A DNA stretch of 63,841 bases, counting the filler, from an uncultured Methanosarcinales archaeon (GTDB lineage Archaea; Nanobdellota; Nanobdellia; Woesearchaeales; CAYPCY01), in assembly GCA_964409385.1 (NCBI GenBank). It is 5 parts of 5 records of this genome, joined end to end, with 100 filler letters (N's around TTAATTAATTAA, not from the genome) between each part and the next. Parts side by side here need not be neighbours in the genome. Positions count along the whole stretch, not along the records: positions 25,072 to 40,300 come from CAYPCY010000008.1; positions 40,401 to 50,353 come from CAYPCY010000009.1; 3 more parts are not named here. The stretch is one strand, 5' to 3'. Shown here piece by piece: positions 39,001-42,000 of this stretch. The first letter of the stretch is position 1. Each line of letters begins with the position of its first letter. The position numbers were made by a program.

Positions 39001-42000
39001 CTATCGTAATTTATGATCCTAGTATTATTTCAAAAGATGAATTATTATTAGATACTGTGATTCAATATTATAGTGGTGTTATTTTGGATGATTCTGTTTG
39101 TGATTTTGATGAATTATTAATTGTTTGTAATTAATTAAAAGAAATTATTTGAAATCCGTATTTGTTGATTTCTTCTTCATTCCAGAACTTAATATTTTTT
39201 GTTTTTCCTATATATGTTACTTTTTTTTCTATTGTTCTTCCTGTGTACGTTTTAGTTTCAGGATCCCATTCTTTTAGAATTAGTATATCTCCTATTTCAC
39301 AAGTCCAGTCTGCAAGTCTTAATTCGTAAGTTTTCTTTCCTTCTATTATTAATTGGAAATATTTTGGCCATACTTTCTTTTCTATTCTCATTTGTATAAT
39401 GATAGTGTTTTTTGTCTTAATGTTGCACTGTATGATATTGGATTTATTGATAGTCCGTCTCTTGCTGCTATTACTTGAACTTTTGATGCGTGTTGTATTT
39501 CTCTTGCTTCATATAGTGGGTCTGCTTGTATCATTTTTATTCCGAATCCTGTTATTATTGCTAGTTTTGGTTTTATTTTTTTTAATAGTTCTATTACATC
39601 TTCTGAATTCATATATCCTCTTTCTTCTATTCCTTTCGGATTTTTACAATTTATTATTAGTATTTTACTTCCTTTATGAGCGTCCATTACTAGATTGTTT
39701 AATTCTGAAACTCCTGTGTATGTTAAAACAAATTCTGGAGTTTTGAATTTTAGTCCTATTGGTCTTTCTTTTCCGTGCCTTGCGTATAATGTGTTTACTT
39801 CGACATCGTTTATTCCTATCTTTGCTTCTGATTCAAAACAAATTGCTTTTTCTACTAGTCTTTTTGTTTTTTTTGTTATTATTGAATCATTATTTCCAGT
39901 TCCATTAAAGCTTGTTTTATTTGTTATTAACACTCCTGTCTTATCCATTCCGTCATAGGTCATTGCGGTTATTACTGCATTTACATCATTACTTTGTATC
40001 CAGTTTGAACTTGTTACAAAAACTGCAATGTTTTCTCTAATGTTGACATTTAATGCTTTGGCCATGGTTAATGCGCCTGGTCCGGGATCTATATGGAATT
40101 GTAATCCTGCAGTTTTTAGAATTATTCCGCCTGTTGCCCTATCTTGTTTTCCTGCAAGTATTGCATCTCCTGCAGTACCTAAGAATATTATTTCTGGTTC
40201 CATGTCCCCCTAGTAATCTTAGTTTCAGATATTAATAAAGGTTTGGAAACAACAGAAATCAAAGATTTCTGGGAGTCAAAACTCAAAGAGTTTAGAAACA
40301 NNNNNNNNNNNNNNNNNNNNNNNNNNNNNNNNNNNNNNNNNNNNTTAATTAATTAANNNNNNNNNNNNNNNNNNNNNNNNNNNNNNNNNNNNNNNNNNNN
40401 ATGCTCCGTACGGGATTCGAACCCGTGTCCTTGCCTTTCTTTGGAGAATAATCCTCGAAAGGGCAAGATGATTGGCCGGACTACACCAACGGAGCCTAAA
40501 AATCAAGATTAAACCTTTGTTTTTAAACTTTTTCAAAAAGATTATGGGCCTGAGGGGAGTTGAACCCCCGACCTCTGGCTGTCCTAAAATGTGCAGAACA
40601 CTGTCATATAAGACCAGCGCTCTAAACCAGACTGAGCTACAGGCCCACACTCAAGCAAGTAAAATAATATAATGTTTTTAAAATTATCTAAATATAACTA
40701 TCTAAAAACCAAATTTTATATAGTTCTTTCAAATTAAAAATTTATGAAATTAATAAGGTGTGAATGGGCTAATAAAGCTAGCTTTCAGGATTATCACGAT
40801 AAAGAATGGGGAGTTCCAGTCTATGAAGATAAACACTTGTTTGAAATGTTAATCCTTGAAGGTGCACAGGCAGGATTATCCTGGGAGACAATCTTGAAAA
40901 GAAGATATACTTACAGGAAAGCATACAAAAATTTCGATCCTGGAATTGTTGCAGAATTTACAGAAGTGGATAAGAACAGATTATTATCTGATAAAGGAAT
41001 TATAAGAAATAAACTTAAGATTAAAGCAAGTATAATCAATGCAAAACATTTTTTAAAAATTCAAGAAGAATATGGTTCTTTCAGCAAGTATTTATGGAAT
41101 TTCACAAATAATCAGGTTATAAACCATAAAATTAAGAAACTGGGAGATATATTACCTAATAACAATCTCTCAAATACTATCTCTGAAGATTTAAAGAAGA
41201 GAGGATTCAAATTTGTAGGATCAACAATAATCTATGCTTATCTCGAAGCTATAGGGATTATTAATGATCATGAAATCTCTTGCTTTAGATATTCACAATT
41301 AAATAAGCTTAATTAATAAGTATAATTCTAGAAATAATCATTAATTATTTTTTCAACTGATGAATTATTCATGACCTTCTTAATATATTCTTTTTCTTGT
41401 TTTGATTTAACAGAATATCCTTTTCTAAATTGATCTTTAATAAAATCTAAATCTTGCTTGATTAAATCAACAGTTCCATCAACATAAGATTTGAACTCTT
41501 TTTCAGATATTGACACTAATCTTTCTAATTCTTCAGTTATATTTTCAACCATTTTAGGCTGAGAAAATGAGCTCCTTTAAAAAGTCAATTATAATTGATT
41601 CTGAAATCTACAATTTAACTAAACACTCAGTGTTTAGAACTTCTGTATTCTCCTAATACAGTAAGTTTAATAAATAAAATTTAAAAATAATCTTTAACTC
41701 ATAACATTATGAGTATAGAACAAATAATTTCAAAAAATGAACTTATTAAACTAGTAGGGAATGAACCAATAACTAATGATTCTGTAGATGAAATATACTT
41801 GATAGTGAAGAAATTCCAAAGGAATTATCAAAGAAATAATTTTGTAAATAAATTCATGCACGAGTTTAGTTTTGTTGATAAGGCATTCTTAACTAAAGAC
41901 TTGGATTATTTCAATAAATCAGTATTAGCACTTGTGAAGGAATTAAAAACTTATTCTTAGAAATTTAGTGTGCTTGAGTGCAGAGCACGAAACATACCAT

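Follow-up and report, generated by a model that had tools for sequence, protein, structure and literature searches.

The assignment of AUA to a tRNA-Ile with a UAU anticodon has been described for several archaea. ARMAN-2, -4 and -5 were reported to possess this tRNA and to lack both tRNA-Ile(CAU) and TiaS, and an ARMAN-2 precursor whose intron lies at 37/38 was spliced in vitro (Fujishima 2011, PMC3239211); N. equitans and K. cryptofilum have likewise been listed with UAU, the latter with an intron (Wu 2018, PMC6000648). How archaeal UAU tRNAs avoid AUG is a question left open in those portions of the literature that were at hand. When an isoleucine tRNA with U34 was expressed in Haloferax, its wobble base became cyanomethyl-U and the tRNA bound AUG, according to the available part of that report (PMC3895270). 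In yeast, the intron of the corresponding precursor is described as allowing the formation of pseudouridine at positions 34 and 36 and as preventing that of ncm5U34 (PMC6582322, PMC9602550, PMC4090602, PMC11408192), and misreading of AUG with ncm5U34 was barely, or not, detected in a reporter assay (PMC6582322).

A second body of work concerns the pseudouridine synthase Cbf5. As described in excerpts of that work, the enzyme recognises a target helix and a lower stem that stack on each other, 10-12 bp in total, and are followed by an ACA, which its PUA domain binds; ACA is bound with higher affinity than CCA, and the lack of this tail can be offset in vitro by Nop10 and Gar1 (PMC2018633). The ‘ruler’ between target and box measures 14-16 nt (PMC7991803). 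An n+15 rule has been formulated, the 3' side of the pocket matters most, and an unpaired UVUN can receive two pseudouridines; in Haloferax, both sides of the pocket were needed in vivo, and among consecutive unpaired U residues, the one nearest the 5' end was modified (PMC7075261).

The present analysis concerns a window of 63,841 nucleotides (filler included), composed of five parts of the genome of an uncultured archaeon (GCA_964409385.1, termed G000 below), and extends to 251 genomes of the same phylum and to other DPANN-type phyla. The more interesting part of its outcome is the conserved fold of the tRNA-Ile(UAU) intron and the co-occurrence of that fold with Cbf5, rather than the decoding switch itself; the initial annotation of this DNA had given no mechanism for the intron.

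The tRNA-Ile(UAU) gene and the tRNA set of its genome

Positions 40401-50353 of the window correspond to contig C9 of G000. At 40545-40646, on the minus strand (as are all elements of the gene given below), Rfam returns a tRNA of 59.6 bits, ARAGORN, run with its intron search, assigns Ile(tat) and an intron of 26 nt, and the acceptor, D, anticodon and T stems are all paired in a computed fold. This unnamed Rfam tRNA had previously been taken for a tRNA-Ile(UAU) interrupted between positions 37 and 38; the two programs agree with that identity, and the stem CTGGT/GCCAG, the loop CT-TAT-A and the length of the intron were seen again in sequence and fold. The 5' exon (positions 1-37, 40607..40646; Rfam, ARAGORN, folding) has an acceptor strand with no difference from that of the tRNA-Ile(GAU) of the same genome (C1:108092-108179), and the 3' exon (positions 38-73, 40545..40580; ARAGORN, folding) ends in the discriminator A73. 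The UAU anticodon (40608..40610) thus sits on an Ile-type body (A73, C4-G69, U12-A23), features that we take to be Ile identity elements. The intron (40581..40606; ARAGORN, folding) satisfies the hBHBh' motif of a canonical archaeal 37/38 intron, with a central helix in which an intron strand at 40583..40586 pairs, by folding, with positions 32-35 (C32-G, U33-G, U34-A, A35-U); across 122 genes the base opposite U34 in this helix is A in 93 and G in 28. As to transcripts, three sets of RNA contigs from the same study gave no match.

Downstream on the same strand, 49 nt away, lies a tRNA-Glu(UUC) with a 19-nt 37/38 intron (40402..40495, minus strand; ARAGORN -i), a neighbour outside the mechanism discussed here that plain ARAGORN, without the intron search, miscalls as Arg. 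Upstream and divergent is an ORF (40744-41316, plus strand) whose product seems to resemble DNA-3-methyladenine glycosylase I. Elsewhere in the window are a 154-nt tRNA-Leu(UAA) gene, apparently with two introns (50118-50271, plus strand), and, by Rfam, the archaeal RNase P RNA (24321-24608), SRP RNA (50694-50966) and 5S rRNA (3417-3533).

Marker genes put the completeness of G000 at 100%, and scans for tRNAs returned 32 whole genes and one partial gene, an incomplete set in which neither tRNA-Ala nor tRNA-Tyr was found; what ARAGORN added with its threshold lowered was mostly noise. Two CAU tRNAs are present in the assembly, the initiator (C2:104391) and the elongator (C2:159211), and no Ile2(CAU)-type tRNA was seen in it, the tRNA set being incomplete; the earlier statement that there are ‘only two’ CAU tRNAs is therefore upheld as to the two that were named, and holds for the assembly only. 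Among 819 mechanically called ORFs, AUA accounts for 8,761 of 21,458 isoleucine codons, and internal AUG codons are fewer (3,858); the figure given before (9,098 of 22,063) corresponds to the same 41%. Profile searches of G000 with TiaS_FLD and TiaS_TCKD, two domains of the enzyme, gave no match, in keeping with its reported absence.

Two ATGA(G/C/T) motifs recur in the introns of elongator Met tRNAs in these phyla (for example G000 C2:159211-159332, L432, and C3:51488-51607), and the Trp intron of G000 has them as well. These motifs resemble, we presume, box C/C', and the introns are possible intron-borne C/D guides.

Spread across DPANN-type phyla

In an enlarged sample of the phylum (251 genomes, 92-100% complete), no match to TiaS_FLD rose over the cut-off, while four of four archaeal controls were recovered, which extends the 0 of 81 Nanobdellota genomes counted initially. 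The sole match under the threshold (G249) falls in an unrelated 582-aa frame and was discarded. TiaS_FLD was also without a match in 80 other DPANN-type genomes (70 draws from Micrarchaeota and 10 others), and TiaS_TCKD in five further ones; for the Aenigmarchaeota (the phylum of G333) and Nanohalarchaeota (that of G334), the TiaS test covers nine genomes.

A pattern for intron-bearing UAU genes, in which the gap starts at 15 nt and which is consequently blind to intronless genes (gap 14), matched 126 of the 251 genomes, or 123 once three chance matches (G020, G038, G077) were removed by eye. A pattern of the 5' half that is blind to the intron gave 248 matches, and the 150 of these that were listed contain UAU genes from at least 67 genomes and GAU genes from at least 38; it added 34 genomes, bringing the floor to at least 157 of 251 (the unpublished G242 and G243 included), far above the 18 of 81 that had earlier been offered as a lower bound. 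Since the essential GAU gene is seen less often than the UAU gene, the misses look like limits of assembly or pattern. An intron is present in 66 of the 67 UAU genomes from the intron-blind listing, and in 6 of 24 Ile(GAU) genes from the same retrieval. A search of the 251 genomes for intronless genes found a single UAU gene (G217) and 15 CAU genes, the latter with Met-type acceptors wherever these were read.

UAU genes were also found in 53 of 71 genomes of Micrarchaeota (the phylum of G252; the unpublished G282 is included), in 28 of 71 of Aenigmarchaeota and in 25 of 38 of Nanohalarchaeota. Genes like that of G000 occur in records titled Nanoarchaeota, Woesearchaeota and Pacearchaeota. No CAU gene with an Ile-type acceptor was seen, as judged by eye, among the matches listed across these phyla. 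The claim that every such gene has an intron thus fails, both for G217 (one of 251) and for 19 of the 53 Micrarchaeota genes, which are intronless. A lineage-wide replacement of agmatidine decoding, also claimed at the outset, does hold in the 251-genome sample; it is shared by three other DPANN-type phyla, however, and is not specific to the lineage. Because TiaS and tRNA-Ile2(CAU) appear to be gone, AUA is, on the showing of the genomes, most plausibly decoded by tRNA-Ile(UAU). Nor was the trait known from two genomes alone, as had been stated: the text of PMC3239211 that was available adds ARMAN-2, -4 and -5, making at least five, and the breadth reported here is new but incremental. A DPANN-wide survey of tRNA-Ile(UAU) was not found in the full-text literature, to which most subscription papers do not belong.

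Intronless tRNA-Ile(UAU) genes of bacterial type were noticed in records titled Patescibacteria, Falkowbacteria, Saccharibacteria, Paceibacterota or simply bacteria (L103, L123, L135, L136, L138, L142, L161, L165, L168, L175, L176, L185, L189, L196), which suggests a parallel decoding switch in CPR bacteria. UAU-anticodon tRNA-like genes were seen in Streptomyces records as well (L090, L131, L194, L202), one of them a plasmid.

A predicted second fold of the precursor

Parsing of 125 genes of the phylum, one per genome, yielded 124 with an intron, in 57 families; intron bases are numbered i1, i2 and so on. The second intron base is G in all 124 introns, with C32 as its partner; i3 pairs with position 31 in 116 of 124 and i4 with position 30 in 115 (permutation mean 96). 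At this last pair there is covariation: G30 is accompanied by C at i4 in 103 of 108 genes and C30 by G in 10 of 16, the C30-G(i4) case being present at least once in each of the five families that have C30. At position 29 the covariation is weak, and 28:i6 does not covary (p 0.59); kin genes are not independent, and p-values for the intron pairing accordingly overstate its significance.

Beyond this conserved start, i7-i13 find partners in a fixed register, which may be the 3' strand of the D stem (53 genes, 31 families), exon positions 46-40 (25 genes, 15 families) or the intron itself (43 genes). Some such helix exists in 103 of 121 genes (one gene, G169, was dropped for a bad parse and two are truncated or unparsed), as against a mean of 21 and a maximum of 36 after shuffling. 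Modes A and B of this pairing never occur in the same gene, and introns pair better with their own exon than with exons swapped in from other families (5.16 vs 3.57 Watson-Crick pairs in mode B). Mode C, an intron hairpin that sequesters the BHB strand, was set aside, its signal being weak when all genes were taken together (swap p 0.052). An origin of the complementarity by tandem duplication was also rejected, since complementarity inherited in that way would not follow the exon changes seen in several families.

In G000 itself, i2-i12 (40595..40605; folding and covariation) are complementary to positions 32-30 and 28-21 within an exon strand that spans positions 21-32 (40612..40623; folding), giving a helix of 11 bp that is followed by CACA. 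The alternative fold, to which only the acceptor and T stems were added, has a computed energy of -34.5 kcal/mol and the BHB cloverleaf one of -28.1, figures that leave out tertiary structure and proteins. Ensemble probabilities of the pair 32:i2 are 0.80 in the phylum without family f68 and 0.77, 0.83 and 0.92 in the other groups with the motif, and 0.00 in 13 Ile(GAU) introns and in 15 introns of Cbf5-negative Micrarchaeota. Of the other 37/38 introns in the retrieved DNA, one of 37 pairs like Ile(UAU), and ACA occurs in none of 25. In Aenigmarchaeota, 32-30 are paired in 21 of 28 genes and the hairpin is kept. Covariation and computed energies together argue that the precursor would adopt this alternative fold before splicing. 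In two loci (L395, L397), a second insert seems to precede the motif-bearing 37/38 intron, as in nested introns, and its removal would restore the G-R-C start.

A predicted ACA box at a fixed position

Among the 108 introns of at least 23 nt, ACA starts exactly at i15 in 48 (shuffle mean 2.2, maximum 9) and at neighbouring positions in 0-4; in G000 it occupies intron positions 15-17 (40590..40592), where its conserved position makes it a predicted ACA box for the PUA domain of Cbf5. NCA stands at i15-17 in 72 of the 108 and CCA in 4. The trinucleotide ACA is found in 20 of 47 families and is absent from 60 of the 108 long introns, and the 16 short introns cannot hold it at i15; ANA at the same place is seen in 5 of 25 Aenigmarchaeota and 15 of 25 Nanohalarchaeota introns. 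An ACA/ANA tail 3' of the lower stem is a property of G000 and of the majority, not all, of the genes.

The geometry is that of the ‘ruler’. The 13 nt of i2-i14, plus i1 for U33 (14 nt) or plus A37 for U34 (15 nt), remain within 14-16 nt; U34 lies at n+15 and U33 at n+14, and U34-A35-U36-A37 fits UVUN. The first intron base is U in 108 of 124 introns, so that U33 has no Watson-Crick partner there. From this geometry U34 (40610 in G000) is the predicted target. A two-sided pocket, an upper stem with a K-turn and a separate RNA are absent, and the 26-nt intron can provide the 3' side only. It is for want of a K-turn and a 5' pocket that the intron is not filed as an H/ACA sRNA, and it would work like half of one.

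Cbf5 and other enzymes in relation to the intron

Of 129 candidate genomes, 80 were searched for Cbf5, a selection that takes in all cases of family f68, of a short intron and of no intron; the enzyme was found in every genome that has the intron (75 of 75) and in none that lacks it (0 of 5). For Micrarchaeota the outcome had been predicted beforehand: Cbf5 is present in 18 of 18 listed genomes with the motif, as against one (G299) of 34 other UAU genomes. Counted by enzyme, G at i2 occurs in 20 of 20 Cbf5-positive and 1 of 20 Cbf5-negative Micrarchaeota, and ANA at i15-17 in 18 of 20 and 1 of 14, respectively, of those with long introns. Exceptions are G332 (0.6 Mb), with the motif and no Cbf5 found, G299, with Cbf5 and a poor motif, and G329, with G at i2 and no Cbf5. 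The correlation rests on about two losses of Cbf5 (one clade of Micrarchaeota; G217/G251), along with one decay of the PUA domain, in f68.

In that family, eight Cbf5 matches lie under the cut-off and end before the end of the model; the Pfam PUA profile matches none of five f68 proteins and three of three others, and the catalytic motif is intact. The box is found in none of its eight introns, and f68 supplies 7 of the 18 genes that lack a fixed-register helix. Introns of f68 type (e.g. L005, L037; L108, L111, L119) have a conserved fold of their own beside this decayed-PUA Cbf5, in which a hairpin with a TTAG-like loop comes early and a further segment pairs with the 3' end of the intron. 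As a separate observation, cbf5 directly adjoins the tRNA-Ile(UAU) gene in L436 (G002:C34:16605-17723) and L435 (G298:C44:6314-7241), whose genomes belong to different phyla; this adjacency is absent in the others seen.

The Cbf5 gene of G000 (C1:76586-77512) encodes both the catalytic motif and the PUA domain, and profile searches found Nop10, Elp3 and TruD in the same genome; searches of G000 and G248 for Pus10 gave only a cross-match to Cbf5. A short, divergent TruD (a 331-aa frame; G000 C2:95365-96258, L086) adjoins a 208-nt, multi-intron tRNA-Arg(CCU). Elp3 is present in 23 of 24 genomes of the phylum that were tested, as well as in G000, and in Micrarchaeota it is found in 20 of 20 Cbf5-positive and 0 of 32 Cbf5-negative genomes, a clade that probably lost much else besides. 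The possibility that the intron tracks Elp3 was rejected as the main correlate on the strength of four genomes only, two of which (G217, G251) have Elp3 without the intron and two (G058, G247) the reverse. Because G217 and G251 keep Elp3 with neither intron nor Cbf5, protection from Elp3 is not essential.

A proposed mechanism and its alternatives

We consider it fairly probable, from sequence evidence, that Cbf5 acts on the precursor to form pseudouridine 34, and perhaps 36, the part that Pus1 plays in yeast. Before splicing, i2-i6 would pair with exon positions 32-28, and i7-i13 would form a second, stacked helix, whether with the 3' strand of the D stem, with exon 40-46 or within the intron, with N-ACA next to it. 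The intron would in this way act, in cis, as the 3' pocket strand, as the lower stem and as the ACA box of an H/ACA guide. Cbf5, with Nop10, would bind the ACA through its PUA domain and isomerise U34, possibly then U36, to pseudouridine; the RNA would thereafter refold to the BHB seen in the sequence and be spliced, in that presumed order. Pseudouridine 34 would block C5 modification by Elp3 and favour A over G, such that AUA is read and AUG is not, a discrimination step for which data from yeast and Haloarcula provide the basis.

Three other explanations deserve to be weighed. An enzyme other than Cbf5 (TruD/aPus7, Pus10, another THUMP-domain protein or a methyltransferase) might modify the anticodon of the precursor, with Cbf5 co-occurring merely through joint gene loss. 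The alternative fold does also resemble the top half of a tRNA with an NCCA end, TruD is present in G000, and in Micrarchaeota the presence of Elp3 follows that of Cbf5, with few independent losses to go by. Pus10 is missing, however, from G000 and G248, no TruD was found in G030, which has the intron, and intron and Elp3 part company in both directions (G058 and G247 against G217 and G251); the box, moreover, is ACA/ANA, with CCA in only 4 of 108, and the decay of PUA in f68 matches the loss of the box. On this balance such an enzyme is unlikely. Slightly less likely again is that U34 stays unmodified, the ribosome and IleRS telling AUA from AUG as in Mycoplasma mobile, with the second fold serving only to time splicing or folding. 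That is the likely state in genomes without Cbf5; the 19 intronless Micrarchaeota genes and that of G217 must work without an intron, and M. mobile and B. subtilis manage with an unmodified U34, going by the published passages at hand. It leaves unexplained, nonetheless, why the ACA sits at a fixed position, why the ruler stays at 12 bp with any of three partner strands and why Cbf5, PUA and motif match, and it sits poorly with the near-ubiquity of Elp3 in the phylum (23 of 24) and with the modified, AUG-binding tRNA in the Haloferax experiment, as far as PMC3895270 describes it.

The least probable of the three accepts that Cbf5 acts on the fold and places its target at U33, or at U36 only, instead of at the wobble base. 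The invariant paired bases end with C32, U33 at n+14 falls inside the 14-16 range and, with U at i1 in 108 of 124 introns, is not Watson-Crick paired, and the assays in Haloferax, in their accessible description, preferred the most 5' unpaired U. Against this, every tRNA has U33, so that a target there would not explain why the device is restricted to Ile(UAU), and U34 is at n+15, in a place like that of U55 in the T loop if U33 pairs with A37. Pseudouridine 34 made by Cbf5 is thus the reading that we prefer. A broader proposal, about as likely as not, is that agmatidine decoding gave way, already in the DPANN ancestor, to a tRNA-Ile(UAU) with a self-guiding intron, half of an H/ACA guide that acts in cis and turns the precursor into a substrate of Cbf5. 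The anticodon would become pseudouridine-A-pseudouridine, as in eukaryotes but through another enzyme, and this would be the main reason why these reduced genomes keep Cbf5.

Comparison with known systems

The decoding switch was known and is now much broader; the self-guiding intron is, we think with reasonable though not full assurance, a new form of intron-dependent wobble modification. No paper linking archaeal tRNA-Ile(UAU) introns to Cbf5 or to an ACA box was found in the full texts searched, a body from which most subscription papers and supplements are missing, and Cbf5 does not occur in a 2024 review of intron-dependent modification; parts of PMC6138745, PMC7912444 and PMC3575796 were also drawn on. 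The model names an enzyme, a base and RNA elements for the discrimination of AUA from AUG, and it lends itself to testing with a transcript and with purified proteins. If true, it would assign a role to an intron that nearly all genomes of a large archaeal radiation have retained in this tRNA, identify a natural substrate on which Cbf5 acts without a guide and offer a character shared by several DPANN phyla and useful for their phylogeny, with the lineages that lack Cbf5, which must decode AUA otherwise, as natural controls.

The comparisons that follow hold for the cited sources as far as their text was available. N. equitans, K. cryptofilum and ARMAN-2, -4 and -5 (PMC6000648, PMC3239211) have the same UAU anticodon, the same lack of Ile(CAU) and TiaS and a 37/38 intron with a strict BHB; to those reports the present analysis adds four phyla-level groups with hundreds of genomes, the fold of the intron, the ACA box and the link to Cbf5. 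Yeast pre-tRNA-Ile(UAU) (PMC6582322, PMC11408192) is the same tRNA with the same intron position, proposed product and protection from an Elp3-type C5 modification, whereas the enzyme proposed here is Cbf5, of the TruB family, with the anticodon in a loop; for Pus1, the anticodon has to be base-paired to the intron.

Archaeal H/ACA sRNAs, guide-free Cbf5 acting on U55 of tRNA (PMC2018633, PMC7075261, PMC11077068) and the trans guide sR115 (pseudouridine 35 of pre-tRNA-Tyr) share with the predicted structure two stacked helices of about 12 bp, the ACA/ANA tail, the 14-16 nt ruler, Cbf5 and Nop10. Unlike them, the structure proposed here would unite half of a guide and its substrate in one molecule, with no upper stem, K-turn or 5' pocket, and the 5' strand of its lower stem would be borrowed from the tRNA body. 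The box C/D guide in the Haloferax tRNA-Trp intron, which directs Cm34 and Um39 (PMC11408192), is likewise a case of an intron that carries guide information for its own wobble position; that guide, however, serves methylation, uses C/D boxes and acts in trans, whereas the Ile(UAU) introns described here are as short as 17 nt.
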